Notes under the pieces: generated by a model | What the model saw: only the letters and a program-made list of their open reading frames with translations | Told to the model about the DNA's origin: nothing | Database searches by the model: none | In this document: one piece after another, positions 17,233 through 55,185 of the stretch | Layout of the letters: each line of letters opens with the position of its first letter | Numbering within the stretch: the first letter of the stretch is position 1 | Translations under genes and position numbers: made by a program | From: Candidatus Poribacteria bacterium | GTDB lineage: Bacteria > Poribacteria > WGA-4E > WGA-3G | DNA: 64,000 bases | Direction of reading: 5' to 3' | Assembly (NCBI GenBank): GCA_965205015.1 | Contig: OZ242029.1 | Location: 1,664,001-1,728,000 of the forward strand

Positions 17233-17736
17233 ATGACAAAAGAGCAGTACGACAGTTGTTATAACACAGGCACCTATCTGACCCTTCCGTATGGTGAGTT
17301 TGTTGAAGCTTATGCGCTTGGGTTGTTAGCACATAAAGACACAGCACAAAGGGTGCGGGAATGGGTTTATGAACAAGGATTTGAACGCGCCGCCGATCTT
17401 GACATAACAGCCTCGGCGGAATTGTGGTCCTTGTTTCGGAATCTCACGCGCGAGCTGTGTATTGAAATGTTGAAGTTACCTGAAGCAAAGAATCCACTTG
17501 CATGCCCTGATTCTGGGCGGGCTGCAGTGCCTACCACTAAACTTGAGGTGTTTTACCAATTGCTGCGAGAGGTGCCTTTCAAGTATAAGCGCGCTTTGCT
17601 CTTGACGTACCTATTTGAAGAGAGTCCGGAACAGATTGCCTATATCTTAAATAAGCCTCCTGAGGAAGTGCATGATCTGATAGATAGAGGAAATGCTGAG
17701 TTAGGCGTAGCGTTCCTTCGTGTTTCGATGCGTTAG
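17233..17736 (+). CDS. small sigma-factor-like protein with a region-4 HTH
   Basis: VPFKYKRALLLTYLFEESPEQIAYILNKPPEEVHDLIDRG resembles ECF sigma region 4. Paralogue at 43523. Confidence 0.65.
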   Translation: MTKEQYDSCYNTGTYLTLPYGEFVEAYALGLLAHKDTAQRVREWVYEQGFERAADLDITASAELWSLFRNLTRELCIEMLKLPEAKNPLACPDSGRAAVPTTKLEVFYQLLREVPFKYKRALLLTYLFEESPEQIAYILNKPPEEVHDLIDRGNAELGVAFLRVSMR

Positions 17737-17850
17737 AACTTATGAAGGGTGCTGCCCGAGCCGTTCAATGTAAGGACGAGCTGTACTCTCGCTCTGTCTA
17801 TGCCGGTCCTAACACCAACGAAAAAAATAATGGCACAAAGAGGTGAATAA

Positions 17851-18384
17851 ATGACTAAAGACGATTTCAGCTTGTGCTATAACAAAAAAAACACTAAAGA
17901 TAGTAAGACTTTGGGAGCCAATGTTTTTGGCCTTGCCTACCGGATCGTTCCGGACGCCGACGCAGCGTGGGAAATTCGGGAGGAGGTGATGGAGATAGGT
18001 CTCAAACGTTGTGCCGAATTTGAAGTAGAAACGGCTTGGGAGGGGAAGGGACACTGGCCTGGCTTAAAAAAACTAACACGTGACCGCTGCGAAAGAATGA
18101 TTTCACGACCGGCGCGAGAAAATCCGCTGGCAAAAGAGACATTAAACCAGTGGCCTTATGACCCATGGGCAGCCGCCATTGCAAACCTGTCTTTTAGATA
18201 TCGACAAATTTTTCTTTTAGGTATGGGATTTAGTAATTGCCCGCGAAACATATACGCCTTACTAAATAAACACAGGTCCAAAAATGAGAAGAAACTTACG
18301 CTGAAAGAGGTCAAAAATCTTCAGGTGAAGGCATCAACTCTCATGGTAACAAACCTCACGGAATCTTATTTACCTAGTACTTAA
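17851..18384 (+). CDS. small degenerate sigma-factor-like protein
   Basis: FGLAYRIVPDADAAWEI (region-2-like), AIANLSFRYRQIFLL (region-4-like). Paralogue at 44129. Confidence 0.6.
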   Translation: MTKDDFSLCYNKKNTKDSKTLGANVFGLAYRIVPDADAAWEIREEVMEIGLKRCAEFEVETAWEGKGHWPGLKKLTRDRCERMISRPARENPLAKETLNQWPYDPWAAAIANLSFRYRQIFLLGMGFSNCPRNIYALLNKHRSKNEKKLTLKEVKNLQVKASTLMVTNLTESYLPST

Positions 18385-18395
18385 AGGAGAATCCC

Positions 18396-20561
18396 TTGGA
18401 CGGAATTATACATCCTAATGTAGAGCAGGTCTGCCGGAAGTACATCTACAAAGATGGGGCATCAGCGGAAATCGCTACTCTCGTTCATGAAAATCCTATT
18501 TCGACTGAAGACCTTGATACCCGTGTGCTGACTTACCTAATGGAAAATAGTCCTTACGCGCGTCACTGGGATACTATAGCTGCGCGTCTAAGAGTGGGCG
18601 ATATTTACACCCAAAAAGCTTTTAACACCCTTGACGCGCCAGCACAGCAGTGTTTACGCTTACGCGCCCTTAATGGTTGTTCTATACCCGAAATTGCCTC
18701 AACGTGTCGGCTGACCCCGCAAAAAGTTCATGCAGTACTGAGAGCGGCGCGATACAATTTCTGGAAAGCGTTTGTTATCTCCGAGGCGCGTGTTCTCCAC
18801 AAATGTCGCCAGTTCGTCTATTCTGATACCGATGCGATGGAGGCTGCGATCGCCAGCTGCTCCCACAGTTGTTCAATTTCCAAGACAGACGTGCTCGCCT
18901 ACTTAGACACCACGCCGGTATCTTGGGAGAATTGGGATACCTTGGCAATTGACTTCAAGGCATTGGACGCTGGAACCGCAGCGCGTGATGTCCAAGAAAT
19001 TTTCGAGACGCTTGAAGCCTCCGAGAAAGCCCTCCTCCGTTTGCGAGTCGTCGATGGACACACCATTGCGACAATCGCGAGGACGCGTGACGAGACAAAA
19101 GCGCATGTCGAAGCGTCCTTAATAACCTATCGGACAAAGTTTTGGAGGACACTCGTTGAAACAGATTGCGTCGTCCTGCGCGAATGCAGACGCTTAATTC
19201 ATGATGATAGAGACGCTGAAGAAATCGCGGTCGCTATCCAGAAGCGTGGCGTACCTGTCGAAAACGTGCGTCGACACATATATGACTATCTGGTGGAACG
19301 TTGGGATACCACACCCGACTGGGACGATCCGGCGTTTATTAAAGTTGTCGAAGCCGTGGTTGACCCAACTGTTCCAAAGAGTGCTGGCTTTGAAGCCGCA
19401 AAGACAGCCTATAATCTGCTTGAATATCCAGAGCAAGACCTTTTGAAATTCAAAGGGGTCGAGGGTGTATCAGATGAAATAATTGCGCAAGTATCCATGG
19501 AACCTCTTAATCAGGTTAAAGAGAAAGCCGGTGCAGCAAAGGAGACGTTTTGGAAACTCTTCACGCGTGAACGGTGGTCCACGCTGGCGTACTTTATCGA
19601 AAAACTCTGTGAAGACGCTGATTCGTCTTCTACTGATATCCTCAAGGTTGAGGCGGAGTACCTCGCCGCTAAGGCGGCTTATAATTCACTGGATGAAATA
19701 GACAAAGAGGTCTTGAGACAGCGGTGTGTGCAAGGACTCTCTGTAGAAGAAATCGCCGCTAAACAGCGGGTCTTCCCTATTGAGGTTGCGGAAACTTTGA
19801 CGGAAGCTCGTAAAAAATTCTATCAAGAATTTTTAGCCGAAATCTATCGTCTCTGGGGGCTGAAGACACCCATTGAAATCGGAGGGGACGAGGATGATAT
19901 AAGTAACGCTTGGGAGACACTACAGGAACAACTTTACAAATTCGTTCCAGAGAATTTCCGCGGTTGGTTAACGACTGCTGCGCAACACTCAAAACTCGAT
20001 TCTAAGAAAAAAGATTACCACCGGAGACTTATTCCCAAAGACCATGGACTCACCTATATGAATCCTGAAGGCGAATTAGTCCCTGTCATATCCGTGCGTC
20101 CACTACAGGCAGATGAAGTGCTTGAAAGAGAAGAATCGGAAAAAAAAGAGTTAAAGTTTTGGGAGAATGAAAGGGAACGCTGGCATGAATTGCTAACAAG
20201 GACCACCGAAGCAATTTTAGGGTCTAAAAAGCCGGAAAAAAAGTTATATCTTTTGATGAATTACATTCTCCAACCGAAACTCAACGAGCTCAGGGGCGCC
20301 GAAACCCGCGTGCCTCACGAGTTTCAGAAGCCCGGCGAGGCGATGGCGGTATCCCACGTCGATCACCAATATCAATCCGAAGTCACGCAGACATGGATCG
20401 GTGAACCCATAGATGCAACGGATAGGAGCATCCGCCGCTACGTTGGCGAAATCATATCCCTTGTGGAGGCGTCTGCAGAAGAGGTTGGCATAGAAGGAAC
20501 AGAACTTGTTGCAGGTTGTGCCCCTATAAAAGAATCGGATGTCAAGAAGAGACGGGATTAG
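18396..20561 (+). CDS. large multi-repeat sigma-factor-like protein (four region-4 HTH units, region-2-like segment, C-terminal HTH)
   Basis: Four L-x-x-x-[EQ]-x-x-LL-x-L-R-x-x-x-G-x-[ST]-x-x-x-IA-type repeats, FRGWLTTAAQH, TQTWIGEPIDATDRSIRRY. TTG start after AGGAG. Confidence 0.7.
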   Translation: MDGIIHPNVEQVCRKYIYKDGASAEIATLVHENPISTEDLDTRVLTYLMENSPYARHWDTIAARLRVGDIYTQKAFNTLDAPAQQCLRLRALNGCSIPEIASTCRLTPQKVHAVLRAARYNFWKAFVISEARVLHKCRQFVYSDTDAMEAAIASCSHSCSISKTDVLAYLDTTPVSWENWDTLAIDFKALDAGTAARDVQEIFETLEASEKALLRLRVVDGHTIATIARTRDETKAHVEASLITYRTKFWRTLVETDCVVLRECRRLIHDDRDAEEIAVAIQKRGVPVENVRRHIYDYLVERWDTTPDWDDPAFIKVVEAVVDPTVPKSAGFEAAKTAYNLLEYPEQDLLKFKGVEGVSDEIIAQVSMEPLNQVKEKAGAAKETFWKLFTRERWSTLAYFIEKLCEDADSSSTDILKVEAEYLAAKAAYNSLDEIDKEVLRQRCVQGLSVEEIAAKQRVFPIEVAETLTEARKKFYQEFLAEIYRLWGLKTPIEIGGDEDDISNAWETLQEQLYKFVPENFRGWLTTAAQHSKLDSKKKDYHRRLIPKDHGLTYMNPEGELVPVISVRPLQADEVLEREESEKKELKFWENERERWHELLTRTTEAILGSKKPEKKLYLLMNYILQPKLNELRGAETRVPHEFQKPGEAMAVSHVDHQYQSEVTQTWIGEPIDATDRSIRRYVGEIISLVEASAEEVGIEGTELVAGCAPIKESDVKKRRD

Positions 20562-20621: not shown

Positions 20622-20654
20622 TTTTGTCCGATTGGTACCCAGTTATCTCTTAAG
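20622..20654 (+). promoter_or_regulatory. putative alternative-sigma promoter TTTTGTCCG-N18-CTTAAG
   Basis: Same motif and spacing at 22872 and 46119 (+) and at 40338, 59681 and, weakly, 39268 (-). Confidence 0.55.
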
Positions 20655-20744: not shown

Positions 20745-21353
20745 ATGTCGATTACGAAGTTGCAAAATGGCGGCGTCGAGTATAAAATCCGAGTGAAGTC
20801 TGGGGATTTAGCAGCCAAAGGTGAAGGGATGATGAGGATTGTGCCTGCGACTGATGGGCAATTCTCGGTCAACGTGTTATTCCCCAATGAAACGGGTACG
20901 CTGCAGCCTTTAGATTTAACCGCCGTGGAACGTGTCGCATTGGTGGAGAGAAAAATTGGCTGGTTTGGCAAGAACCAATGGGTAAAACCTCTGGTGATCA
21001 CAGCAGGTAATTTCATCGGGGTTCCGCTCGTACTTGACGCGCTTGTAGGTGGTATCCAAACTGCTGGTGAAGCAATTCAGATGCTTGCCGGGGGAACTTT
21101 TATGGCTACTACCTATGGTACTGGGGTTTACACAGGGACGAGACTCACGCGCTTGGCAAGATTCATTCTCACAACCGAAGATGAGAAGCATGCCGTTTTG
21201 GAAGGTTCTGAGAACGCTTTCTGTTTTCTGGATGGTGTGTATACGGCGCCGAACATTCAATTGGAAGAGGTAGCATCTGAAATCCCGGAGGCGCCGGCAG
21301 CAGATGAAGCCTCTGAGGCACCGGCAGCCGATCCTACACCGGCACCGGCTTAA
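20745..21353 (+). CDS. membrane-hairpin protein (family member 1)
   Basis: AGGAG RBS, beta-rich flanks around a Gly-rich hydrophobic hairpin, Pro/Ala tail. Paralogues at 22994 and 46292. Confidence 0.8.
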   Translation: MSITKLQNGGVEYKIRVKSGDLAAKGEGMMRIVPATDGQFSVNVLFPNETGTLQPLDLTAVERVALVERKIGWFGKNQWVKPLVITAGNFIGVPLVLDALVGGIQTAGEAIQMLAGGTFMATTYGTGVYTGTRLTRLARFILTTEDEKHAVLEGSENAFCFLDGVYTAPNIQLEEVASEIPEAPAADEASEAPAADPTPAPA

Positions 21354-21365
21354 GGGACAGAATCT

Positions 21366-21392
21366 ACGAGTGGGGCTTCCCGCCTCACTCGT
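21366..21392 (+). terminator. conserved stem-loop after the hairpin-protein gene
   Basis: acgagtggggc-ttccc-gcctcactcgt, identical at 23588 and 46874. Confidence 0.55.
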
Positions 21393-21413
21393 TGGCTTTG
21401 GAAGGAATCAAAA

Positions 21414-21878
21414 ATGCGTCTCTTTAAAGAGCCGAACTTTCCGCTCGATGTACTTAAAGGCACAGCCGCACCTCTCGGCACGGGACACGCCTTCTGTATC
21501 CGAGAGGACCCGAATATTGGGCTCCACGGCTGGTTCAAATTTGTGAGCAACAGTCAGAGGCAACAGTTGGCACTGACAGACGTATCCCGACTTGAGATGT
21601 CTCGGGGTATGTTGGAGGTAAATCCTCGAAAATGGGCGGCACCTACAGCGGTTGCAGCGCTGAGTCTTTTCACCCCATTACCTGCGTTTCTGGAATTCGT
21701 TGGAATTGCAGTTGCAGCGGTGTCCAGTGGTTTCACGAAAACGCGTGTGCGTTTCGTCTGTGAGACAGTCGGGGGTGATCATTTTACGGGGAGTCTTTCT
21801 CTAACGGGTTTCGTTGCAGCGAGAACCTTGTGGCAGAAACAGGGAGAATCTCGGTTAAACCCGATGTTCCTAAATTAA
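21414..21878 (+). CDS. membrane-hairpin protein (divergent)
   Basis: LALTDVSRLE, hydrophobic hairpin, RVRFVCETVGGDHFTG. Confidence 0.7.
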   Translation: MRLFKEPNFPLDVLKGTAAPLGTGHAFCIREDPNIGLHGWFKFVSNSQRQQLALTDVSRLEMSRGMLEVNPRKWAAPTAVAALSLFTPLPAFLEFVGIAVAAVSSGFTKTRVRFVCETVGGDHFTGSLSLTGFVAARTLWQKQGESRLNPMFLN

Positions 21879-22026
21879 CTATAGTTTGGACAGTTGTAGC
21901 ATAGGAGACCGTTGGTCTCCTGTGCATCACTATCCCCGATTTTTGTGAGAGTGCCTCGCGGAAATGCAACTGAAAAAAAATAAACTCGGAAACGGAAGCG
22001 AGGGTTCCTCCAGATGGAGGCGAACG

Positions 22027-22476
22027 ATGGAAAAGACACAGCAATCCACACAAGAGTTCCGCGTGAAGGTTATCCATGGAAATTACCAAAAAGGGCGGAG
22101 ACACTGGTTTCGCGTGACGGTTCTCTCCGAGGATAAAATCCACGGGCGTTTTGAGATGAAAACGGAGAAAGGGGACTCGGAAACCCTTGAAATGGAGGCG
22201 ATCGTCAGGTTTGAACAGACCACGAGCGGCAAATTCAGGGTAGGCGACTGGATGATGCACTACTTGCTGCCGCATTCGGTGTCAATGTTAGCGGCGAGTG
22301 CCTCTCTGGTTGATTTACAAGGCATGGAGCTGGCATCACGAAATGTCCGGTTTGTGTGTGCCACAGAGAATAAGTATTTCTGTGGGGAGATAGCACGAAA
22401 CGGTTTCCGTTTAGCACAAGCGTTGATCCAGCAGACAGAACAGGCAGATGCGGTAAAGTCAGGGAATTTCTGCTGA
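22027..22476 (+). CDS. hairpin-family protein (divergent)
   Basis: GGAGG before MEKTQ. FRVKVIHG, EAIVRFE, VRFVCATENKYFCG. Confidence 0.6.
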   Translation: MEKTQQSTQEFRVKVIHGNYQKGRRHWFRVTVLSEDKIHGRFEMKTEKGDSETLEMEAIVRFEQTTSGKFRVGDWMMHYLLPHSVSMLAASASLVDLQGMELASRNVRFVCATENKYFCGEIARNGFRLAQALIQQTEQADAVKSGNFC

Positions 22477-22482
22477 CTTGTT

Positions 22483-22806
22483 CTATGCCTCACCGGTTTC
22501 ATCTCGGACACATCGAAAGCCGAGCGACATGTTCGTTAACATTCTTGTGTTCCCATTTCGTTGAAAAACACGTAACGTTTGGTACCAATCTGCGTAGCTT
22601 CCACCTCGGGACACTGCGTGGCTCCGCGGATTGATGCCTTCAAAGTTCTCTACTATCCATTGAAGGTTCTGCTTTGTCGCGACCGGATTTTTAAAAGGTG
22701 AGTTCTCATAGAAGTAGGGTTCGTAGTCATCAAGGCACCCCTCCCATCTGAACGTGCGATGAATCGCACTACTATGAACTGGCCCGCTTGTAGTGGGGCA
22801 ATTCAT
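22483..22806 (-). pseudogene. FGE-sulfatase (SUMF1) domain C-terminal fragment
   Basis: WEGCLDDY...SPFKNP...RGGSY...GFRCVR, with no N-terminal part of the domain. Confidence 0.6.
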
Positions 22807-22871
22807 GGTTCTCCCGTCGATTACCGAAATATTTTCTGAAACTTCATTGAGGTCTGCTACGAGATTTACCG

Positions 22872-22904
22872 TTTTGTCCGATTGGTACCCGGTTATCTCT
22901 TAAG
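22872..22904 (+). promoter_or_regulatory. putative promoter, copy 2
   Basis: ttttgtccg-N18-cttaag. Confidence 0.5.
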
Positions 22905-22993
22905 TGTTTAAGAAAAGTCAGTTTGAAAACTGATATCTAACGTGCGTGGACTACACGCCACTGAGAAATATCTAACGAAACAAGGAGAAACTC

Positions 22994-23575
22994 ATGTCGA
23001 TTACGAAGTTGAAAAATGGAGGTGTCGAGTATAAAATCCGAGTGAAGTCTGGGGATTTAGCAGCCAAAGGTGAAGGGATGATGCGGATTGTGCCTATGAC
23101 TGATGGGCAATTCTCGGTCAACATGTTATTCCCCAGTGAAACGGGTACGCTGCAGCCTTTGGATTTAACCGCCGTGGAACGTGTCGAATTAGTGAAGAGA
23201 AAAATTGGCTGGTTTGGCAAGAACCAATGGGTTAAACCGCTCGTCGTTACAGCGGGGAATTTCATCGGGATGTACATCGCGGCGCCGTTCGTAATTGGCG
23301 CATTCAGTGCTCACATAGCTGAAGCAGCAATGCTCGTCGGGGGTACTTTCGTTGCGACAACTTATGGTGCTGGCGTGTATACTGGCTCGAAACTCAATCG
23401 CTTGGCAAGATTCATTCTCACAACCGAAGATGAGAAGCATGCCGTTTTGGAAGGTTCTGAGAACGCTTTCTGTTTTCTGGATGGTGTGTATACGGCGCCG
23501 AACATTCAATTGAAAGAGATAGTCCCTGAAACCTCTGAGGAACCGGCAGCCGATCCTGCACCGGCACCGGCTTAA
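22994..23575 (+). CDS. membrane-hairpin protein, recent duplicate of 20745
   Basis: Near-identical flanks, divergent hydrophobic hairpin. Confidence 0.8.
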   Translation: MSITKLKNGGVEYKIRVKSGDLAAKGEGMMRIVPMTDGQFSVNMLFPSETGTLQPLDLTAVERVELVKRKIGWFGKNQWVKPLVVTAGNFIGMYIAAPFVIGAFSAHIAEAAMLVGGTFVATTYGAGVYTGSKLNRLARFILTTEDEKHAVLEGSENAFCFLDGVYTAPNIQLKEIVPETSEEPAADPAPAPA

Positions 23576-46078: not shown

Positions 46079-46118
46079 GACGCCTAAATGTGTCCCTAAA
46101 CCCCAGCCAGATTTACCT

Positions 46119-46151
46119 TTTTGTCCGATTCCTACCCGGTTATCCCTTAAG
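46119..46151 (+). promoter_or_regulatory. putative promoter, copy 3
   Basis: ttttgtccg-N18-cttaag conserved although the spacer differs at several positions. Confidence 0.55.
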
Positions 46152-46291
46152 GGTCTTGAGAGGCATCAGTCTACAGTTTTCAGTCGAGAGATCGTTGTAG
46201 TATTTACAAACGGTTGCACAATTACACGATTCACTGGCGACTGACAACTCTTAAAACTGACAACTGATAATCATAAAAAGGAGAAAATAAG

Positions 46292-46861
46292 ATGAGTACG
46301 AAAGTACAAAACCACGCGACCGAATGCAATATCCGCGTGAAGTCTGGAGATTTAGCAGCTCAAGGCAAAGGAACGATGGCTATTCTGCCCCTGACTGGCA
46401 ATCAAGTCTCCGTCAAAGTACTACTTCCAACGGAGACAGGTGTCCCGGAACCTTTGGATTTGACAGCCGTAGAACGTGTCGAGCTGGTGGCAAAAAAAAA
46501 CGGCTGGTTCAGCAAGAACCAGTGGGGAACACCGCTGTTTACCACGGTTGGTGCTTTTATTGGTGTTCCAGTCGTAATTTTCGCATTGGTAGAGGTGACA
46601 GAGGCTACTGCTTTACTTATCGGCGGAACTTGGCTCGGTGCCACCTACGCTTCCGGAGTTTACACAGGGTCGAAACTCACACGCTTGGCGAGATTCGTTG
46701 TGACGACAAAAGATGGCAAGCATGCTGTGCTTGAGGCACCCGAGCCTGTGTTTGGTTTTTTGAATGGTGTCTATACTGCGCCAAACATCCAGCTGGACGA
46801 CGCAACGGTACCTGAAACCTCGGCAGCACCTGCGGCAGATCCTGCACCCGCAGCGGCTTAA
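46292..46861 (+). CDS. membrane-hairpin protein, paralogue of 20745 and 22994
   Basis: IRVKSGDLAA, LDLTAVERVELV, RLARF, GVYTAPNIQL. Confidence 0.8.
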   Translation: MSTKVQNHATECNIRVKSGDLAAQGKGTMAILPLTGNQVSVKVLLPTETGVPEPLDLTAVERVELVAKKNGWFSKNQWGTPLFTTVGAFIGVPVVIFALVEVTEATALLIGGTWLGATYASGVYTGSKLTRLARFVVTTKDGKHAVLEAPEPVFGFLNGVYTAPNIQLDDATVPETSAAPAADPAPAAA

Positions 46862-46908: not shown

Positions 46909-47148
46909 GGAATTTCAGGGGCGACCCTCCATGACATTATTATCACGGAAGGTATTCGGAATGCCGATGCTGTGATGTTTATCGTAAACCCGAAGCGGAT
47001 TGGTCAGTCAGATAAAGCCGTGTTAGTAGAACGGATTCGGGAGGCGATCAGTCTCGAGAGTATCCTCAAAGACACACCCGATTTTGTTGTGCGTCAGGAG
47101 ATTAACACACTTAATATGAAAATTGCAGAGCTCTCTGAAATTCGGTAA
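46909..47148 (+). pseudogene. deleted remnant of the 23897 dynamin-like gene
   Basis: GISGATLHDIIITEG...REAISL fused in frame to ESILKDT...RQEINTLNMKIAELSEIR*, matching about 24767-24913 and 26305-26398. Confidence 0.85.
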
Positions 47149-47200
47149 CACCGGTGTACACCGTTATACATCCGTTGACAAACACCTAAAGAGAGCGTAA

Positions 47201-47389
47201 GTCAGTTGTAGTGACGACGAGAGTATCCTGATCTGGGACGCAGAGACGGGCAGCCTCCTGCAGCAGGTCATAGGGCATACGGGACACGTGTGGAGAATCG
47301 CGTTCAGTCCGGATGGTAAAACCCTCGCCAGCTCAAGTAGTGATGGGACACTGCTGATCTGGGACCTCACCCATCTCAACGGCGAATAA
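47201..47389 (+). pseudogene. WD40 repeat fragment
   Basis: SDDESILIWDAETG...GHTGHVWRIAFSPDGKTLASSSSDGTLLIWD, preceded by an in-frame stop. Confidence 0.8.
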
Positions 47390-47409
47390 CGTGAAGCGGC
47401 ACTTCAATA

Positions 47410-49842
47410 TTAGTTTGCCGATCGCTCTGTGATAGACTGGCAGAGTTTCTCAGCGGTAGTTATGAAAGCTTTGACAACTGTATACCGGATGTAAGCCTTA
47501 AACTCATTTCTTGATACTACATTGGATACTACATTGGAGGAACTTATAGCAGTGGGGGTCACCAATTCCTCGGCTCTCGCCTTGAACTTATTCTGCTCCC
47601 TCTCAAAACGAGTCATGTCAAACCCACTCGGGTCAGCCCCGTGTGCAAGCAATACTTCTACCGCGTCTAACGGATACGGATTAAACTCATCCGGATACGA
47701 CTGATGCCCATAACGCCAGGAGAAGTTGCCGGGGTCAGCCCCGTGTGCAAGCAATACCTCTATCGCCTCGGCTGCATTCTCCACTGCTGCACTATGCAAG
47801 GGGGGGTAGCCAAATGCAGTCTCAGCATTGGGGTCAGCCCCGTGTGCAAGCAATGCTTCTACCATCTCGGCTGCATTCTCTTCCGCTGCCCTATGCAAAG
47901 CGGTCCTACCAGATTCCTCCTTAGCGTTGAGGTCAGCCCATAACTGCCCACGCCATCTTTCTACCATTTCAAATGCATTCTCTGATGTCTCCGGATACAG
48001 GAGAAGTGGGGTAATGTCATGTGCAGTATCAGGTGTGAAGTACTTCCGCATCGGCTTGAAGAACTCCGTCAATGCGTCATGGATCTCGCTCCGTACCTCC
48101 TTTCGCCTTGACTCGGCTTTCCTCTGTAGCCTGGACCTTTTCTTGTCGAAGCCTGCTACGATGATTGGTATTATTTCCGATGCAGCACCAGCAGCAACAC
48201 CTCTCATAATTCGGCGAAACTTTACTGTATCCTTAATCTTCTTCCTTATATCAATTTGAATTAGTGTTTCATCTAGTAGGCTCCGAACAACTTGCTTCAC
48301 ATCTTTCTTATAGGTGTCATGAACTTGAAGGGCTTCTCTCCCTAATTCTCTGTAGAAACCAGAAAATTCTTCTTGAAAAAATTCAGAAACTTCGTCAACC
48401 TTCCAGAATATAGAATCGAGTTCCTCAACAAAGTAGGAAATGATGTTCTGTCTTACTGTCTCATGATCCCATCCAGCCTCATCAGACCCCTTTTTCGGCA
48501 CATAGCACGAGTCGGCTCCTCCTATGTCCAAATTCCAGTTGTAACGCTCCCCAGACAATAACTCCATAAGACAAGACATCACGTCGTTGGCGATTGTGGC
48601 ACCAATCTTTTTGCCGAATGTGTCAAATGTCTCTTTAATAGCGGTTATCTCTTCATGCTTAGCGGTTCCTATACGTTCACTTTGCTGGGTTTGCATGTGC
48701 TCAGAAAGTTTACTTCTAACTTTCTCAGAGAGAGGGACAGCCCCAAGCACTGTAGCGTACTCAAAGTCGAGCATTGTAATGCAGTCGAGTCCAAATTTTT
48801 CATTCAGGGCAGTCGCGAAACTTTCAATTTGTGCACAACCGCCTGTTAGCACGAGTGCTGGTTTTCTGCCCGTCTCCTTAACAACATTGTTTATGTAGGG
48901 TTCAACTACGTCGCACGCAGGTGTAATATAATTTTTCTCAATGGCTGATTCAATTTCGCGTGCACTCAATGGCACTGAAAAATTCTCCTCAATTTCTATG
49001 GGACGCGGTTGATCATTCGGGTTTCGGCAAAGTGCCTCTTTACGTAATTTGGCTTCGTGACACAAAAACTCAAAGTCATCTTCTGTTATTCTGGTTCCCT
49101 CCTTCATCCTGTTCCTCAATCGATTTTGGAGCGTGCGTGCCAAGTCGACTTCGATATTTCTTCCGCCAACAGTTCGGGTTCCACCCGCCTTAAGTTTACC
49201 CGATTCGCCTTCTTCTCGCATGTACTTCGGCTTACTACGATAGATATACTGCCGATGCATATATGTCCAATGCAGTGTCCCCGCTCCACAGTCCAGAAGA
49301 ATAATATCTGCCGGCAGGTCCTCCTTCCATCTCTCAACGAATTGGGCTGCTGCTATAGGTTCTTCTATCAATTCGACCGAAAACCCGGCTGCCTGAGCAG
49401 AAGCCTTCAATATATTATCTCGTTCGTTCTTTGTGAAGGTACAGGGATGCGTGAGATAGGCTATCTCAGGTTCACTCTCAAAAGCAGAACATTTTCCTGC
49501 TTCTTTCTTGAGGTGTGTGAAAAGTGCTGTCAGCAATTCCTGAGGCGTTTTTTTAACGCGTCTAAAACGAGGCAACCGGAACAGTATAAACTTCTCAGAA
49601 ATTAGACCTTTAATATTGCTAATATTGCTTACAGCTTGTTGGCGGGTTTCTTCAGACTCAAACATCTTTTGAGCATCATAGCCAAGGAGGATTTCCTCAT
49701 CTTCGTTAAGAGCAAAGTATGATGGGAGGTAATTCTCGACACCATGGCGCATCAACTCTGCTTTTTCCGTTTTTGGATCGAAGTAGGCGAGTTTGGTTCT
49801 GCTGGTTCCAAAATCTATCGCCACGACAGAGTTCTTACGCAT
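47410..49842 (-). CDS. Hsp70-family NBD fused to a helical region and ankyrin repeats
   Basis: AIDFGTS, EEPIAAA, LDCGAGT, LTGGCAQI. Ankyrins GRTALHRAAEENAAEMVEALLAHGADPN and following. Confidence 0.85.
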   Translation of the reverse strand: MRKNSVVAIDFGTSRTKLAYFDPKTEKAELMRHGVENYLPSYFALNEDEEILLGYDAQKMFESEETRQQAVSNISNIKGLISEKFILFRLPRFRRVKKTPQELLTALFTHLKKEAGKCSAFESEPEIAYLTHPCTFTKNERDNILKASAQAAGFSVELIEEPIAAAQFVERWKEDLPADIILLDCGAGTLHWTYMHRQYIYRSKPKYMREEGESGKLKAGGTRTVGGRNIEVDLARTLQNRLRNRMKEGTRITEDDFEFLCHEAKLRKEALCRNPNDQPRPIEIEENFSVPLSAREIESAIEKNYITPACDVVEPYINNVVKETGRKPALVLTGGCAQIESFATALNEKFGLDCITMLDFEYATVLGAVPLSEKVRSKLSEHMQTQQSERIGTAKHEEITAIKETFDTFGKKIGATIANDVMSCLMELLSGERYNWNLDIGGADSCYVPKKGSDEAGWDHETVRQNIISYFVEELDSIFWKVDEVSEFFQEEFSGFYRELGREALQVHDTYKKDVKQVVRSLLDETLIQIDIRKKIKDTVKFRRIMRGVAAGAASEIIPIIVAGFDKKRSRLQRKAESRRKEVRSEIHDALTEFFKPMRKYFTPDTAHDITPLLLYPETSENAFEMVERWRGQLWADLNAKEESGRTALHRAAEENAAEMVEALLAHGADPNAETAFGYPPLHSAAVENAAEAIEVLLAHGADPGNFSWRYGHQSYPDEFNPYPLDAVEVLLAHGADPSGFDMTRFEREQNKFKARAEELVTPTAISSSNVVSNVVSRNEFKAYIRYTVVKAFITTAEKLCQSITERSAN

Positions 49843-51201: not shown

Positions 51202-52872
51202 TCACGGATGTACAGAAGGGATCGCTTGCATACTTACGGACGCTATTGACGTGCGATTTTCGCTAATTTTTTCTAATAGAGAATCCTCGGTAATTGCCTT
51301 GATTGTCGGATAAAAGTTATTTAGGGTTACCCGCTTTCGCTCAGCTTTGCGAATCTCTTTAAAGATATCTTGCAAAGCATCTTGAGAGAAATGTATAATC
51401 TCCTCACAGTCCATTCTTATTGTCTGTGCTATATAGTAATTGAACGGTCTCATATTTTTTTCACTTTCAGCAAGCATCTCGTTCTGTTGCTGCTTTTTCC
51501 GATCTTCGGAACTAGCCCACGTGTTCACAGCTATGATCACAGCAGCAATAGTAATACCAGCAACAATTGCCCATCCAACCGGATTTGATGCTAGGCCTGC
51601 TATTGCGGCACCTATGAAGTAACCTGGAAGGATTCCAGAGGGGAGTATTCGTAGGTATTGACTTATTGCGTTTGTCCTAAAAAGATACAAACTAAAGTCA
51701 CTCATTACTTGGAGTTCTATTTTTCGATTCAAAGGAATAGGCGACCTATAAGAGATGCCACCAAATTCAGAGATTCTCTCACTCAATTCGCGGCTGATGT
51801 CCCGAAGATATTTCGCTATTATATCCTCCAAATATCTCGTCCAGTCTTCAAGGAGTTCCTTTGTGTTGGATTCAAGCAGTCTGGATACGTCTGATTCTGT
51901 TTTAATTTTACCTTCAGAAAGCAGCTGAGCGATTCGTTTCATCTCAGCGCGAATATCACTGGAATAATTTGCTTCAATAGGAAAGTCTCGAACGATTTCG
52001 TCAATAAACCTTTTGTTAATCCGATCAACTGCCTTGGTCGTTTGATTTTCAATCTCCTGTAGATCACGCTGAAATCTGTCGAGTGTGGTAAGCGACTCTA
52101 AATACCCTTCTACTCTCGTTTCAAATTGCCGGTAATATTGAAGCATGTAGTTTCGGATTTTCCGGAGCAGCAAGCCACGCCATTTTTCAGAAGTATCCAC
52201 AGCGAAGTACCGGGCGATCTCCCTACTTTTGGGTGATGAAAGGTAAGGAATATCCAATTTTTTCTTAACAGCCAATATATCAGCAATCGTGTTTAAATTA
52301 TCGAGAGTATCTTCTTTGTCTCCCTGTCCTTTCGCGCCTTGCACGAGAAAGAGAAAATCGCTGTCAACCAGATACTTGATTTCATTTAAACACCTTTTTT
52401 CGGCCTGATTTATCTTATTCCCGGAAATTAAAAAAACGACCGCCTCTGTGTGCCATTCTCCCATACCCATAATCTGATTGACATCACGCCAGTTGCTAAA
52501 GCTCGGTGTGTTAAGGAAGACGAACCGGATGCCATCTGCTTTCTCGCGATAAGCGTAGTACTCAATGCCTGATGCAACTCCAAGAAAATTTTCAACTTGA
52601 AGGGGGACAGCCTGCGGGAAAGCATCCTCAATGAATTTGCGTTTTTCGGAGGCAGAGGCCTCACCGACGACGGTAATCCGGATGCCCTTCCTATAAACAT
52701 CTTCTAAAGTTTCTGCACTTTCGGTGGGATGCCTGCAGTAGCGCAGGCGGTGTTCCAAGTCGCTGATTATTTCGTACGCTTCAAATTCTCGAAGGTCTCG
52801 AGCAATGTCACGAAAATTATCAAAGTGATCTAACCAAAAAGATTGACCTGAACCATCCTGTTTTTCATCCAT
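51202..52872 (-). CDS. degenerate IniA-like dynamin with a glycine-rich membrane hairpin
   Basis: ITVVGEASASEK (eroded P-loop), FLNTPSF, INQAEKRCL, GAAIAGLASNPVGWAIVAGITIAAVII. Confidence 0.65.
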   Translation of the reverse strand: MDEKQDGSGQSFWLDHFDNFRDIARDLREFEAYEIISDLEHRLRYCRHPTESAETLEDVYRKGIRITVVGEASASEKRKFIEDAFPQAVPLQVENFLGVASGIEYYAYREKADGIRFVFLNTPSFSNWRDVNQIMGMGEWHTEAVVFLISGNKINQAEKRCLNEIKYLVDSDFLFLVQGAKGQGDKEDTLDNLNTIADILAVKKKLDIPYLSSPKSREIARYFAVDTSEKWRGLLLRKIRNYMLQYYRQFETRVEGYLESLTTLDRFQRDLQEIENQTTKAVDRINKRFIDEIVRDFPIEANYSSDIRAEMKRIAQLLSEGKIKTESDVSRLLESNTKELLEDWTRYLEDIIAKYLRDISRELSERISEFGGISYRSPIPLNRKIELQVMSDFSLYLFRTNAISQYLRILPSGILPGYFIGAAIAGLASNPVGWAIVAGITIAAVIIAVNTWASSEDRKKQQQNEMLAESEKNMRPFNYYIAQTIRMDCEEIIHFSQDALQDIFKEIRKAERKRVTLNNFYPTIKAITEDSLLEKISENRTSIASVSMQAIPSVHP

Positions 52873-53019
52873 GTCTATTCCCTTCTGTTGCAAGAGTGGA
52901 CCGACTCTCCCTCTATCCATAACATCCACAGTAGATAGAATAGATGAAGAGTCGGAAGATTTTTCAGTCAGCGTTGTTCTGTTCAGAAACAGGAAACGCT
53001 TTGCGTAAACGATAGAGAC

Positions 53020-54750
53020 TTAGGAGCCTGAGACATCTGCGTCTCCATCATTCTGACCCTCAACACCAGGCGACACCCGGGAGGCGGAATTCGCATTGTT
53101 GTCTGGGACATACCCCGCGGATGGGACTTCAGCGGTGGACTCCGATATTTCCTCTACATTATTCTTAGATGGGTTGCCTTCATCGGATTTAGCACTCAGG
53201 GCATTGTTCAGAGTCGCATCGGTCATGGCACCCTCAGATCCATCTACCCTATCAGTTTCATCCGGTTCGCTTTCGCTCTCTGGAGGTGAATACGCATTAA
53301 ACAGGCGGGTGAGTTCCACGTCATCTTCACCCAATTCACCTCCCATGGAGGTTTGCGAAATATCACCCGTTGCTGGGGTGCTTTCGGAAACTTCTGCATT
53401 CGGTTCTTCACGCGCCGTGCTCGGGGGACTCTCCCGGGTAAATATCACCTCTTGGCCTCTCATAGCTTCCTGAAATTGCTCAAGATCATACGCTATGTGG
53501 TTACCGTTGGGTCTCCCGAGATTATCTCGGACACCGGTATCAATTACGGTAACTGTGCCTTTCTCCCAGTCTATATCCACGAGCTGAACCACGTGACCGC
53601 CTTCCTGACCATCCCATGGCGCAAGGGGTTTCACGTTCAAGCCGACCATCACTAGCTTACCTTCGGCAAGTTTCGCCGCAGCACCTTCAAGGGTAGCATC
53701 GTAGTCGATATCGACCGGAATCCCCAGATCTTCCAGTGTGAGCGTCAATTGTAAAGGATACGTACCAATGGGTGTGTAGGGACAGTACTTCGCAACAATC
53801 AAGTCTACACACTTACCATATAACAAGTCTATGGATGGCAATCTTCCCTCAAGGAGTGCGTGTAGCGTGATAACACCCTCCGGAGCATGTCTCCCGAATT
53901 GGGCAGCGATAACTTTTGAAAGTGCCTGCACACAATTATCACCCAAATCCTGAGGATCGAAAGCTTCACGCGGTGTGTGGGGGGGACCAGGCGTGACTTC
54001 TTGTTTAAGGGCTTCTATAATATCGTGAGGGTCAAGATCAAATTCCCGAATCTTAGAGACGATCTCACGGATTTCTGCAGCGTTGGTTCCATCTGAAACC
54101 GCGTCTATAATCTCACGTATGATTGAGTCATCGCTAACAGCACCAGAAGCACTGTTGGAAATGCTGCTTTCAGCGGAAACATTAGCAGCATCTAACTCGC
54201 GGAACTGATCGAAGATACGTTCAACTGCGGCTAATTCGTCTGTGAGGCTCCTATCAACTTCGGCTAATTGTTCAGAGTAACCATTGACATATTGCTGGAC
54301 CTTAGTTTGGATTTCCTCATCCGTGAGACCTTCAAGATTCCAAAAGGATGCCGGATCCTCGCGAAAGAGACCAGCATTAGATTCAGCGAAGCTAGGCAAA
54401 TCGGATGAGAATGCCTCGATTTCCTGGAATTCGGAGAGGATTTCCTTTAAGTCCTCGGACACGTTGGCAGTATCGATCCGATCCGACAGATAATTTTCCC
54501 AGTAATTCTCTTGGCGAACATCAACATCAGACCTCATCAAATCAAGCAAGGACTTCTTATCTTCTGTCCCGTTCAATTCGATCCGCCTTGACAGCCGTTC
54601 CATCTCACTTTTAACGAGTGCCTCTACCTCTGTAGGCAATAGATTCGGATGGAACTTCTCGACGAATTGCTTGAACTCTTCATTACGCGACAAATGCTTA
54701 GACAGTATGATCGCTCCACGATGCACAAGACGTGCAGTTACTGCGTTCAT
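53020..54750 (-). CDS. C39/papain-like cysteine peptidase with a helical N-terminus and acidic tail
   Basis: QDLGDNCVQA, GGHVVQL, VIDTG. Same operon position as 34355. Confidence 0.75.
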   Translation of the reverse strand: MNAVTARLVHRGAIILSKHLSRNEEFKQFVEKFHPNLLPTEVEALVKSEMERLSRRIELNGTEDKKSLLDLMRSDVDVRQENYWENYLSDRIDTANVSEDLKEILSEFQEIEAFSSDLPSFAESNAGLFREDPASFWNLEGLTDEEIQTKVQQYVNGYSEQLAEVDRSLTDELAAVERIFDQFRELDAANVSAESSISNSASGAVSDDSIIREIIDAVSDGTNAAEIREIVSKIREFDLDPHDIIEALKQEVTPGPPHTPREAFDPQDLGDNCVQALSKVIAAQFGRHAPEGVITLHALLEGRLPSIDLLYGKCVDLIVAKYCPYTPIGTYPLQLTLTLEDLGIPVDIDYDATLEGAAAKLAEGKLVMVGLNVKPLAPWDGQEGGHVVQLVDIDWEKGTVTVIDTGVRDNLGRPNGNHIAYDLEQFQEAMRGQEVIFTRESPPSTAREEPNAEVSESTPATGDISQTSMGGELGEDDVELTRLFNAYSPPESESEPDETDRVDGSEGAMTDATLNNALSAKSDEGNPSKNNVEEISESTAEVPSAGYVPDNNANSASRVSPGVEGQNDGDADVSGS

Positions 54751-54924
54751 TTTTACGCCTCCCTTTGACGGGTATCAAGGTATTTATATACCTGCTAAAA
54801 CCCATCGTGATAAAGAGATACCCAAAACGGGTTCGTTTAGTATACCGGTTTTTAAATTTAATGTCAAAAAAATGCTAATATCTTCTCATTTACCACCATT
54901 CTAACAGTGAACTCTCTGAATAAT

Positions 54925-55185
54925 TTACTCGGAACGTTGGGAGAGTTTGGTAGCCGCGCAGAGAAGTCCGCACACAGCGACGCCTCCTACAATACCGAGA
55001 CCAATCGGACCCAGTCCGGTCGCCGCAACTAACGCACCCGCTTTCCCAAAGACCGCCCCTATGCCGCCACCGATACCGGCTCCTGTGGCAGTTAAACCCA
55101 CACCCACATTGGCAGCAGTGGCCCCAGTAGCGGCAATCCCTGCCCCGGCTTTTGTTCCAAAACATGCTGAAGCACGATAACTCAT
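54925..55185 (-). CDS. small glycine-zipper membrane peptide
   Basis: AGGAGG RBS, GAGIGGGIGAVFG...GLGPIGLGIVGGVAVCG. Confidence 0.65.
   Translation of the reverse strand: MSYRASACFGTKAGAGIAATGATAANVGVGLTATGAGIGGGIGAVFGKAGALVAATGLGPIGLGIVGGVAVCGLLCAATKLSQRSE

Follow-up and report, generated by a model that had tools for sequence, protein, structure and literature searches.

Closest described systems

Tandem pairs of bacterial dynamin-like proteins include IniA/IniC of the mycobacterial iniBAC locus, DLP1/DLP2 of Campylobacter, BDLP of Nostoc and DynA of Bacillus. Such a pair occurs twice in the locus described here, which lies in a window of 64,000 nucleotides, i.e. the whole stretch of poribacterial DNA that was analysed. 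As in the known systems, two dynamin-like genes are adjacent and often overlapping, one of them with a membrane hairpin; the G domains are intact in copy 1, and a small glycine-rich ORF that precedes copy 2 bears a loose resemblance to IniB. The locus differs by the fixed partners of its dynamin-like pair, a putative sensor ATPase of the Hsp70 type and a C39-like peptidase, and by a second copy devoid of working GTPase motifs.

The anti-phage system Eleos/LeoABC is likewise dynamin-based and thought to act on membranes, and the best PADLOC matches of four proteins of the window (D1, I1, I2 and C1, described below) are Leo models (LeoA, LeoBC and LeoB). These matches are, however, partial and weak (E 1e-15 to 1e-4), and neither an Hsp70-type nor a peptidase component is known from the Leo system. 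The initial annotation did not recognise the full gene combination as a described one and proposed a PADLOC screen. Indeed, no description of this combination was found in the literature or by PADLOC, which returned just the weak, partial Leo matches.

Tandem bacterial dynamin-like pairs are treated in Jilly et al. 2018 (PMC5827413), the available text of which also holds the sole earlier mention found of a dynamin-Hsp70 gene link: in a cyanobacterial 'chaperone clade' of dynamin-like proteins, a DnaK-domain gene lies downstream. There as here, a dynamin-like protein is genetically linked to an Hsp70-family gene, but this is one sentence of gene context on cyanobacteria only, and that text mentions no peptidase, second dynamin or variable sensor domains. 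Similar in logic are the DO-GTPase/GAP1 conflict systems, some of which include HSP70 and tubulin (Kaur et al. 2020, PMC7159879), and the 'tripartite' sensors in which an HSP70-like NTPase stands in place of the STAND NTPase (preprint 10.64898/2026.10.19.760177). As far as the available texts go, they share with the locus paired paralogous GTPases, an Hsp70-family NTPase, variable non-enzymatic sensor modules, peptidase licensing and inactive paralogues. DO-GTPases are nevertheless described as a separate TRAFAC family coupled to GAP1, whereas the GTPases of the locus are of the dynamin-like type, without any recognised GAP1; the available text of Kaur et al. 2020 (PMC7159879) does not contain the word 'dynamin' (0 occurrences).

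A conserved P-I-C-H operon

The twofold convergent layout proposed in the initial annotation is borne out in gene order and paralogy. The ORFs sit at the coordinates claimed and the families (dynamin-like pairs, Hsp70 ATPase domain with repeats, C39-like peptidase, sigma-like proteins) were mostly well named, but several gene assignments needed correction. The regulatory, plus-strand halves are close paralogues (60-80% identity by blastp, far beyond chance), and the minus-strand halves, although very divergent (about 29% identity at best by blastp), keep the same gene order. Thus, H1 and H2 share 29% identity over 388 aa, in the ATPase domain only, C1 and C2 24% over the C-terminal 146 aa, and P1 and P2 26% over 199 aa; I1 and I2 give no BLAST match.

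The minus block forms a conserved operon that stands by itself and encodes a C39-like peptidase (P), two dynamin-like proteins (I and C) and an Hsp70-type protein (H). Scanning genome contigs with the H ATPase domain yielded 24 loci, from sources including Planctomycetota, Cloacimonadota, Pseudomonadota, Myxococcota and Poribacteria. Eight of them (L003, L004, L009 and L013-L017, from Planctomycetota, Cloacimonadota, Pseudomonadota and one unclassified source) carry P-I-C-H in this order on one strand, and a dynamin-family gene is present in 18/24 and a P gene in 12/24. The reciprocal metagenome scan with P gave 80 loci, with 19 PICH, 12 PI and 6 PIC arrangements, PI and PIC being mostly cut by contig ends. 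When at least 6.5 kb of downstream sequence is available (n=20), 11 loci read PICH, one each PIC, PHIC, PH and HPII, and five P only; these five lack I, C and H and have an M48 peptidase (four loci) or an ankyrin protein (one) downstream, which indicates that P is a shareable module. The cassette proteins of the window match HMMs made from outside loci only. No window protein matches a Pfam C39 family, and the C39 name holds through family membership, Peptidase_C39_2 being matched by 12 of the 15 aligned P-family members.

The P family counts 819 cluster representatives (E<=1e-30) out of 1.84 billion. Yet none of 300 other genomes sampled from the phylum of L015 contains it, and just 1/101 genomes of the poribacterial phylum contains the H family; the operon is thus rare and of sporadic occurrence. 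No cassette copy was found on viral contigs, which is neutral evidence. Many of the 131 ORFs neighbouring outside cassettes are housekeeping genes, and few match PADLOC models at E<=1e-10: among the matches listed, mad3 appears twice and 23 further families one ORF each, 17 of which are variant models of PD-T4-6, one kinase-type family. Cassette neighbourhoods are therefore not obvious defence islands.

The two cassettes of the window

In copy 1 (minus strand), a consensus sigma-70 promoter (35649-35676, TTGACA-16-TATAAT, 12/12) precedes P1 (34355-35626, 423 aa), which combines EF-hand-like repeats (EF-hand_5, E 1.4e-11) with a C39-like cysteine peptidase whose Q/C/H/N-D motifs align with those of the family (family HMM, E 1.2e-41). 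It is followed by E1 (32875-34326; family HMM, E 6.5e-22), an inactive paralogue (42% identity to P1) with EF-hand-like repeats and a peptidase fold in which the catalytic Cys and His align with Pro and Tyr, and whose true start lies probably about 90 codons inside the ORF. One C39 peptidase had been assigned to each copy; copy 1 thus has two peptidase-family genes. Then come I1 (30606-32759, 717 aa), dynamin-like with the P-loop GKPGVGKS (family HMM, E 2.8e-50; PADLOC LeoBC, E 9.1e-7; nearest Atlas clusters of the dynamin family, score 0.96), and, overlapping it by 4 nt, C1 (28828-30609, 593 aa), with the P-loop GPQGAGKS and a conserved C-terminal tail (Dynamin_N, E 6.1e-16; family HMM, E 8.8e-64). 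The last gene, H1 (26483-28804, 773 aa), encodes an Hsp70-type ATPase domain (Pfam HSP70, E 1.2e-11, residues 10-356) and a WD40 propeller (E 3.1e-30), and matches the family HMM from outside loci only at E 5.4e-68.

In copy 2 (minus strand), a hydrophobic ORF of 86 aa, rich in glycine and alanine and preceded by a Shine-Dalgarno sequence (54925-55185), lies upstream of P2; it is present in this copy only, and nothing comparable precedes P in 77 other loci. Position 55185, first taken as the peptidase boundary, is the start of this ORF. A sigma-70-type promoter (54839-54867, TTGACA-17-TATACT, 11/12) precedes P2 (53020-54750, 576 aa; family HMM, E 4e-8), a C39-like peptidase with long acidic tails that retains Cys and His in the family alignment and whose orthologue in the nearest relative, G001, seems to lack the peptidase domain. 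I2 (51202-52929, 575 aa; LeoBC, E 3e-12) is a pseudo-GTPase with a membrane hairpin (residues 428-468) and no P-loop, as is also the case for its G001 orthologue. C2 (49835-51196, 453 aa) matches the family HMM over its C-terminal part only (E 8.7e-16), the alignment showing a deleted G domain and retained tail motifs. The IniA-like/IniC-like labels were largely right as to family but need correction for copy 2, where I2 has no P-loop and C2 no GTPase domain. H2 (47410-49842, 810 aa) joins an Hsp70-type ATPase domain (HSP70, E 6.2e-5) to ankyrin repeats (Ank, E 5e-15) and matches the outside-only family HMM at E 9.9e-65. With no GTPase motifs in copy 2 and apparently no peptidase domain in the G001 P2, a GTP- and protease-driven mechanism cannot apply to this variant. 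As it is conserved in a second species despite the loss of GTPase chemistry in I and C, the role of copy 2 is probably that of a scaffold or of a regulatory variant.

Putative sensor domains of H and the predicted C-H contact

In contrast to usual Hsp70 chaperones, H has no substrate-binding domain and is thus not a chaperone in the usual sense. Its ATP-binding residues are invariant, H2 included. The C-terminal regions of 38 outside H proteins bear Sel1, TPR, FGE-sulfatase, ankyrin, lectin, cyclophilin and other domains, in agreement with the exchangeable recognition domains initially postulated, and some loci (L006, L011) encode several H paralogues. In several loci (L004, L009, L015), the reading frames of C and H share 4 nt, and C2 retains the tail region only, both in keeping with a contact between the two proteins. 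Complex prediction of the C1 tail with H1 scored 0.65, the best of three controls scoring 0.00, for a score mark that was reached by 58/80 solved complexes and 2/110 mismatched pairs. The runs share at least 74% of contacts, with a partner pLDDT of at least 59, and the predicted interface brings H1 residues 45-97 and 225-257 together with C1 residues 516-517 and 557-591. This prediction supports a putative contact between the tail of C and the Hsp70 domain of H, covering lobes IB and IIB, the surface used by the Hsp70 nucleotide-exchange factors GrpE and BAG. Here, however, this surface would be contacted by a dynamin-like tail, and the result may stem from the model's memory of Hsp70-exchange-factor complexes.

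The sigma module and its link with the cassette

On the plus strand, copy 1 begins with A1 (17233-17736, 167 aa), an ECF-sigma-like protein whose match to Pfam Sigma70_r4_2 (E 1.1e-5, 25.4 bits) falls slightly below the 25.7 cut-off. The structure check suggested by the initial annotation agrees with its sigma assignment: the AF2 model (pLDDT 86.3) has ECF sigmas as best PDB folds (SigW 5wuq_B, E 7.2e-4; RpoE 5uxx; CnrH 4cxf) and also resembles PhyR sigma-like domains. B1 (17851-18384, 177 aa) is a paralogue of A1 (28% identity, E 4e-14) without match in a Pfam scan. Unlike ECF sigmas, A and B show no detectable sigma-2 signature in their sequences, and M strings several sigma-4-like units onto a C-terminal half predicted, from the M2 model, to be of unknown fold; M1 (18396-20561, 721 aa) matches Sigma70_r4_2 (E 1.4e-13) and NCBIfam sigma models at residues 73-124, 200-250 and 411-477. 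No anti-sigma gene was recognised. Instead of the single hairpin protein claimed between M1 and D1, four small paralogous genes occupy 20745-23575, namely h (20745-21353 and 22994-23575) and h' (21414-21878 and 21964-22476). A strong hydrophobic segment near residues 83-103 is found in three of them, not in 21964-22476, and none belongs to a Pfam or NCBIfam family (22994-23575 being scanned against Pfam only).

Paralogy and repeats identify the second module, A2, B2, M2 and h2 (43523-46861, plus strand). By blastp, A1 and A2 (43523-44026) are 80% identical (E 3e-97), B1 and B2 (44129-44671) 74%, M1 residues 259-713 and M2 (44684-46078) 65%, and the h proteins (20745-21353, 22994-23575, 46292-46861) 60-79% among themselves. 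A promoter-like motif of 33 nt stands as a conserved island amid diverged DNA upstream of these three h genes and only there (20622-20654, 22872-22904 and 46119-46151, plus strand; three matches, 0 expected in 100 shuffles). Its nearest match close to a cassette falls within a small ORF and differs at 2 positions of a 13-mer.

The initial annotation regarded the whole 38-kb arrangement as one system, a 'supra-operon' in which the sigma-like proteins would be the dedicated transcription module of the convergent dynamin, Hsp70 and peptidase genes, a reading that we find doubtful. The module does adjoin the cassette in 3/3 instances seen (two in the window and one in G001, i.e. two genomes), and this with two cassette types whose H proteins are just 29% identical. 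M and H homologues lie on identically sized contigs in three more assemblies (14,008; 179,415; 5,636,236 bp); M homologues are in this way paired with members of both H clades, sisters in a quick tree (SH-aLRT 95), so that the association may predate the H1/H2 split. For H2-like proteins on contigs of 145,862, 99,851, 68,582 and 55,269 bp, there is no size-matched M homologue among the matches listed. Both module copies are also maintained under purifying selection, as indicated by dN/dS values of 0.17-0.38 between plus-strand paralogues (dS 0.34-1.2).

Against a single system, the convergence of the two blocks precludes co-transcription, a near-consensus sigma-70 promoter stands before each cassette, and the sole conserved motif specific to the module lies upstream of h and was not found in G001. 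Moreover, no sigma gene occurs among the recurrent families (at least 2 ORFs) of the 131 cassette-neighbouring ORFs in other phyla, for the best 25 of 112 families among the matches listed, and M is present in 1/175 genomes of the poribacterial phylum, the sigma module being confined to this lineage. The cassette, a self-standing operon in other phyla, is thus autonomous from the module. The linkage of both blocks in other genomes, initially put forward as a test, breaks outside this lineage and is intact in all three instances inspected inside it, which makes a lineage-specific functional coupling possible. The module is probably an add-on outside the core system, forming a cooperating membrane-stress regulon.

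Proposed function

The best explanation of the whole, held with moderate confidence, is that the self-contained P-I-C-H operon is a sensor-triggered membrane system supplemented by the sigma module in one lineage. P is a cytoplasmic C39-like cysteine peptidase, I (with a membrane hairpin in I2) and C are two dynamin-like proteins, and in H the usual substrate-binding domain is replaced by an exchangeable one for binding, of WD40 type in copy 1 and of ankyrin type in copy 2. H would be the sensor and switch, its variable domain recognising a cue that stems from an invader or from damage to the envelope. The helical tail conserved at the C-terminus of C is predicted on lobes IB/IIB of the H ATPase domain, i.e. 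at the nucleotide-exchange-factor site; through it, assembly of the I-C pair on the membrane could depend on the nucleotide state of H. The assembled pair would then remodel, seal or, in an abortive mode, break the membrane, and P may cleave a component to license or end the response. In the poribacterial lineage, and there only, each operon lies tail to tail with a module of two ECF-sigma-like proteins, M, small membrane proteins driven by a promoter-like motif of their own and a third dynamin. We infer that, in conflict or under stress, the operon probably remodels membranes once its sensor is triggered; it is a good candidate for a new system of surveillance or defence that acts on membranes. 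The shareable nature of P, the weak and partial PADLOC matches and the neighbourhoods without an obvious defence-island character speak against this reading.

Rather unlikely, in our judgement, is a housekeeping or stress-repair device for the envelope, in which H would use its variable domains as adaptors to envelope partners specific to each lineage. Such a device fits dynamin-like pairs that bear membrane hairpins, IniA/IniC of mycobacteria and DynA of Bacillus being involved in membrane sealing, as well as constitutive-type promoters, housekeeping neighbours, the lack of a strong defence-island signal around cassettes and the association with ECF-type sigmas in Poribacteria, since ECF sigmas classically serve envelope stress. 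Such rarity and sporadic distribution are, however, unexpected for housekeeping, and the extreme variety of H C-terminal domains, lectin and FGE-sulfatase types included, the expansion of H paralogues in some loci and the presence of inactive paralogues and pseudo-enzymes also speak against it. The strong constitutive-type promoters are equally compatible with housekeeping and with defence. Another reading, in which a sponge symbiont would use the cassettes to interact with its host, the WD40 and ankyrin domains making them eukaryote-like proteins directed at host cells, is very improbable: H1 and H2 do bear such repeats and the nearest relative, G001, is a poribacterial MAG, but a hydrophobic-segment check revealed no N-terminal segment of this kind in H or P, and the operon also exists in other phyla and other metagenome collections with unrelated C-terminal domains.

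Additional dynamin-like genes

Beside the sensor-triggered cassettes proposed here, the plus strand carries further dynamin-like genes. D1 (23897-26398, 833 aa), with the P-loop GRTGVGKT, matches Dynamin_N (E 1.1e-10) and the PADLOC models LeoBC (1.3e-15) and LeoA (2.7e-9). The dynamin claimed after the hairpin protein in copy 2 is reduced to a deletion remnant of a D1-type gene downstream of h2 (about 46909-47148, plus strand), in which tblastn recovers D1 residues 291-343 (77%) and 796-833 (58%). An intact dynamin-like gene and a sigma gene (40557-43388, plus strand) lie directly upstream of A2. The first, D2 (40557-42677, 706 aa), looks unrelated to D1; it has a membrane hairpin (residues 535-574) and matches Dynamin-like_hel_bact (E 3.8e-21), Dynamin_N (E 1.3e-13) and, over its full length, the I-family HMM (E 6.4e-22). 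The second, S2 (42750-43388, 212 aa), is a canonical ECF sigma (TIGR02937, E 2.1e-19).

Organization of the two copies

According to the ORF listing and family scans of the window, two sigma modules on the plus strand each face a convergent cassette on the minus strand. The sigma module of copy 1 consists of the ECF-sigma-like genes A1 (17233-17736) and B1 (17851-18384), the sigma-like multidomain gene M1 (18396-20561), four small genes (20745-23575) and the dynamin-like gene D1 (23897-26398). Its cassette includes H1, with an Hsp70 ATPase domain and WD40 repeats (26483-28804), C1, with a Dynamin_N domain (28828-30609), the dynamin-like I1 (30606-32759), the peptidase paralogue E1 (32875-34326) and the C39-like peptidase P1 (34355-35626). 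Copy 2 starts on the plus strand with D2, a bacterial dynamin-like protein (40557-42677), and S2, a canonical ECF sigma (42750-43388), followed by A2, B2, M2 and the small membrane protein gene h2 (43523-46861). On the minus strand, it carries H2, in which the Hsp70 ATPase domain is joined to ankyrin repeats (47410-49842), C2 (49835-51196), I2 (51202-52929), P2 (53020-54750) and an 86-aa glycine-rich ORF (54925-55185).

The initial annotation had described the regulatory halves as close paralogues, and the identities of 60-80% agree with this (A 80%, B 74%, M 65%, h 60-79%). With dN/dS of 0.17-0.38 and dS of 0.34-1.2, both plus-strand copies are old and maintained. The minus-strand halves were correctly noted as very divergent with the same order. 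Indeed, their gene order is kept and sequence similarity is nearly gone, the identity reaching 29% at best (H 29%, ATPase domain only; C 24%, tail; P 26%), and pairwise comparison finds no match between I1 and I2. The proposal that one layout occurs twice holds for gene order and fails for the dynamin after h2, which is absent from copy 2 except for a D1-type remnant at about 46909-47148 matching D1 residues 291-343 and 796-833. Since the H1 and H2 clades are sisters in a quick tree, both copies probably descend from one ancestral locus in the poribacterial lineage. The interval separating the dynamin remnant from the end of H2 contains a fragment of a WD40-repeat gene (about 47200-47390, plus strand), 37-48% identical to the H1 propeller.

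The cassette as an autonomous operon

The minus-strand block stands on its own as a conserved operon. A genome scan using the ATPase domain of H as query, with one genome per species, retrieved 24 loci. Eight of these carry P, I, C and H in this order on the same strand, 18 have a dynamin-family gene and 12 a P gene. The loci come from, among others, Planctomycetota, Cloacimonadota, Pseudomonadota (Belnapia, Chromatiaceae), Myxococcota and a poribacterial MAG. No further recurrent family emerged from clustering all ORFs of these 24 loci. The P family, used as query on metagenomes, yielded 80 loci, among which 19 display the order PICH, 12 PI and 6 PIC, 32 have no cassette gene other than P, many of these lying on short contigs, and a few are rearranged. 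When at least 6.5 kb is available downstream of P (20 loci), the order is PICH in 11, I, C and H are incomplete or rearranged in 4 others, and P stands alone in 5, the next gene then encoding an M48 peptidase (4 loci) or an ankyrin protein (1 locus).

Profiles built exclusively from outside loci recognize the proteins of both cassettes, namely C1 (E 8.8e-64), I1 (2.8e-50), P1 (1.2e-41), H1 (5.4e-68), H2 (9.9e-65), C2 (8.7e-16, tail only), P2 (4e-8) and I2 (3.2e-5). The operon is rare per genome despite many P clusters, 819 cluster representatives being counted at E<=1e-30 and 1884 at 1e-10 among 1.84 billion. P occurs in 0 of 300 other sampled genomes in the phylum of locus L015, and the H family, for which only the ATPase domain served as query, in 1 of the 101 poribacterial-phylum genomes sampled. 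In viral contigs, no P was detected, and matches to H are limited to weak giant-virus Hsp70 hits.

The sigma module and its link to the cassette

The initial annotation had proposed one duplicated supra-operon with a dedicated transcription module, a view at odds with the promoters and with the neighbourhoods in other organisms. A perfect TTGACA-16-TATAAT stands in front of P1, and TTGACA-17-TATACT in front of P2; with such sigma-70-type promoters of their own, the cassettes do not need a special sigma. A promoter motif shared by the plus and minus blocks was searched for and rejected. Across several phyla, the minus-strand block recurs with no sigma family beside it among the families matched by at least two ORFs (131 neighbouring ORFs of 22 loci, tallied with Pfam).

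Relatives of M are scarce, with only 14 among 5.8 billion proteins, one positive genome out of 175 in the phylum and none in the metagenome scan made with M. The positive genome is the nearest relative, the poribacterial MAG G001, in which an I2-C2-H2-type cassette also lies tail-to-tail with D1, h', h, M and B, A being absent. Three more assemblies include M and H homologues on equal-sized contigs (14,008, 179,415 and 5,636,236 bp), and H2-like proteins are also found on contigs of 55-146 kb whose length is matched by no listed M homologue. The sigma module is thus a lineage-specific neighbour of the cassette, and a link between the two, drawn from few, related genomes, is plausible.

The AF2 model of A1 (pLDDT 86.3) has an ECF-sigma-like fold, the PDB matches listed being nearly all ECF sigmas or PhyR-type sigma-like domains, with probability 1.00 and TM 0.42-0.46 over 147-161 columns. 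The two-domain sigma-2/sigma-4 fold is assigned to A1 by this model, and S2 meets the ECF sequence models. B is a paralogue of A. Pfam detects no Sigma70_r2 in A or B, the A/B profile retrieves no sigma from PDB sequences, its comparison with M1 by hhalign returns nothing, and no anti-sigma family is seen. M starts with sigma-like units; in the M2 model, pLDDT is mostly <50 over the C-terminal half, to which no fold is therefore assigned. A 33-nt motif conserved upstream of all three h genes and absent elsewhere in the window is the best candidate promoter for the sigmas of this module.

Other genomes of the phylum encode stand-alone A/B relatives (L027-L043; 16 of 101 genomes), mostly of 224 aa (192-238 aa) and about 24-30% identical. 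They were rejected as module members as no M lies within 1.5 kb. This conserved protein, a distant relative of A and B, may represent the form from which the two sigma-like proteins arose. Upstream of P1, three family-less ORFs of 187, 241 and 258 aa (36560-38831, minus strand) each carry two hydrophobic segments in the C-terminal half, a build like that of h/h' that is not accompanied by significant similarity. At 9093-14930 (minus strand), an ORF of 1945 aa contains a single N-terminal hydrophobic segment and matches nothing in NCBIfam.

The peptidase and its inactive paralogue

Among 15 aligned members of the P family, 12 match Peptidase_C39_2 (PF13529; best E 2e-10) and 8 match Peptidase_C39 (PF03412). 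Full-length P1, E1 and P2 have no C39 match in Pfam, nor does P1 as member 1 of the family alignment; these three proteins join the C39-like family via the HMM built exclusively from outside loci. In the alignment, the catalytic Gln, Cys, His and Asn/Asp are in register in P1 and P2. E1, duplicated from P1, is inactive: Pro replaces the catalytic Cys, and Tyr replaces His. Members of the family carry short conserved tails, MFD-like at the N-terminus and RNxLFRxI-like at the C-terminus. A pairing with an ABC exporter finds no support near the cassette, where no ABC transporter recurs (2 of 131 neighbours). Concerning a double-glycine-type substrate, no conserved small glycine-rich ORF is present upstream of P in 77 loci; the 86-aa ORF, with no counterpart there, is ruled out as a conserved peptidase substrate.

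In four metagenome loci (L123, L134, L139, L144), a P-family gene and an M48 metallopeptidase gene directly downstream form a two-gene module devoid of dynamins and Hsp70. In G001, the gene in P position (L002:333-1418) shows, on visual comparison and with no significant match, a likeness limited to the N-terminal part of P2, and its product has an acidic low-complexity end and no peptidase domain. The same locus includes a separate FGE-sulfatase-like gene after H (L002:6906-7808).

The dynamin-like proteins

The P-loop GxxxxGK[ST] is present in D1, D2, C1 and I1, Dynamin_N is matched by D1, C1 and D2, and the DTPG motif (DxxG, G3) is found in C1 by alignment. I2 is devoid of a P-loop and C2 of the whole GTPase domain; the C tail, however, contains invariant residues that are retained even in C2. 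A candidate helical stalk behind the G domain is marked in D2 by a match to Dynamin-like_hel_bact (E 3.8e-21), and in I1 and I2 by matches to the C-terminal part of the LeoBC model. Paired adjacent hydrophobic helices, candidates for a membrane hairpin, occur in D2 (535-574) and I2 (428-468), I1 has a weaker hydrophobic patch, and the hydrophobic-segment scan detected no hairpin in C1 or D1.

For the ten core proteins, PADLOC matches were limited to weak hits on Leo and repeat models, and Eleos/LeoABC is represented by partial hits only (best D1-LeoBC, 1.3e-15; C-terminal part of the LeoBC model for I1 and I2), with no full-length LeoA and LeoBC matches in one operon. H, P1 and E1 match no Leo model, H hits repeat models only, and P2 has no PADLOC match at all. 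A weak NsnC match pointed to Menshen, which is unrelated since its components are ParB-type and nuclease proteins. Among the nearest published items are the DO-GTPase/GAP1/HSP70 systems (PMC7159879), in which a GAP1 protein accompanies paired DO-GTPases; I and C display only dynamin/P-loop-type Pfam families, with no other family recurring in the neighbours by Pfam, a database that may include no GAP1 models.

The Hsp70-type protein and its predicted contact with C

HSP70 (PF00012) is matched by 30 of 31 members of the H family, in which the invariant ATP-binding residues include D11, K18, E172, D195, G197, T200, G336 and G337. The Pfam match stops near residue 356, and no C-terminal substrate-binding domain or lid follows; WD40, ankyrin or other domains are found instead. 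The exchangeable recognition domains anticipated by the initial annotation are indeed observed, as 38 outside H proteins vary at the C-terminus (Sel1 in 5, TPR in 5, FGE-sulfatase in 4, or ankyrin, cyclophilin, beta-helix, lectin, Ig-like or no known domain). Near relatives of H1 end with WD40 or FGE-sulfatase.

For the H1 ATPase domain and C1 residues 330-593, complex prediction gave a score of 0.65, the best of three controls scoring 0.00; 58 of 80 solved complexes pass the mark set for this score, as do 2 of 110 mismatched pairs. At least 74% of contacts are shared between runs, partner pLDDT is at least 59, and the predicted interface involves H1 45-97 and 225-257 and C1 516-517 and 557-591. 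This supports, short of showing, binding of the C1 tail to the H1 ATPase domain. The predicted face on H1 corresponds to the surface contacted by nucleotide-exchange factors on Hsp70, so that the pass could be partly model memory of Hsp70-exchange-factor complexes.

In metagenome locus L165, a DnaJ-TPR protein gene (5807-7420) lies beside H, P and two I-type dynamin genes, a hint that the Hsp70-type ATPase works with a J-domain partner in some variants. A different, common Hsp70-like family of about 540 aa was retrieved in the poribacterial phylum (L076-L104; 130-150 bits), WD40/ankyrin genes adjoining it in a quarter of sampled loci. Having no dynamin genes next to it, this family was set aside.

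Possible function and significance

The rare four-gene operon present in several phyla is the firm result. The diversity of the sensor domains, a sporadic distribution, H paralogues expanded in some loci and the presence of inactive paralogues point to a conflict-type, sensor-triggered, membrane-acting system as its inferred function. It may instead have a role in stress repair, which would fit the weak defence-island signal, the housekeeping genes in its neighbourhood and its constitutive-type promoters. Extended further, the conflict-type reading leads to a tentative and rather doubtful proposal, that of a new prokaryotic surveillance class. In it, the Hsp70-type H with its swappable sensor would be read by the exchange-factor-like tail of C, licensing the dynamin pair, with the C39-like peptidase as proteolytic trigger, to remodel or rupture the membrane upon infection or damage; in Poribacteria, the system would be wired to its own ECF-sigma/sigma-mimic circuit inducing small membrane proteins and a third dynamin.

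The full combination was unfamiliar at first reading, and full-text search found no account of a peptidase-dynamin-dynamin-Hsp70 operon; supplementary files and subscription journals were outside the scope of this search, and an earlier description may exist. Further near items are a single sentence in PMC5827413 that places genes with DnaK domains downstream of one clade of cyanobacterial dynamins, and a preprint (10.64898/2026.10.19.760177) according to which a STAND NTPase can be substituted by an HSP70-like NTPase in tripartite sensors.

Bacterial dynamins are widespread and their triggers largely unknown. The operon ties a dynamin pair to an Hsp70-type ATPase that bears a sensor and to a peptidase, a fixed and testable combination that is conserved in several phyla and known from hundreds of sequence clusters. 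If the predicted tail-ATPase contact is true, it would represent a new use of the Hsp70 nucleotide switch, outside folding, in the control of membrane remodelling, and would also extend the NTPase-switch immune systems by a dynamin-based branch. The strains behind L014 and L015 are in culture, which makes ordinary genetics and phage or membrane-stress assays feasible.

Signs of a possible genomic island around copy 2

Two full-length tmRNA genes with the same tag peptide (Rfam RF00023, 150 bits each) lie on the minus strand at 55502-55836 and 57432-57766, each just downstream of a PcfJ-like gene (55861-57273 and 57795-59168, 59% identical). The tmRNA and PcfJ-like pairs form a 1.93-kb tandem duplication beside copy 2. 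As islands classically integrate at tmRNA genes, the region is a possible genomic island. A 19.3-kb segment including D2, S2, the whole copy 2, both tmRNA genes and both PcfJ-like genes is bracketed by a direct repeat of 103 nt, 95% identical and with sharp edges (40292-40394 and 59635-59737), which may represent the boundaries of a mobile or duplicated segment.
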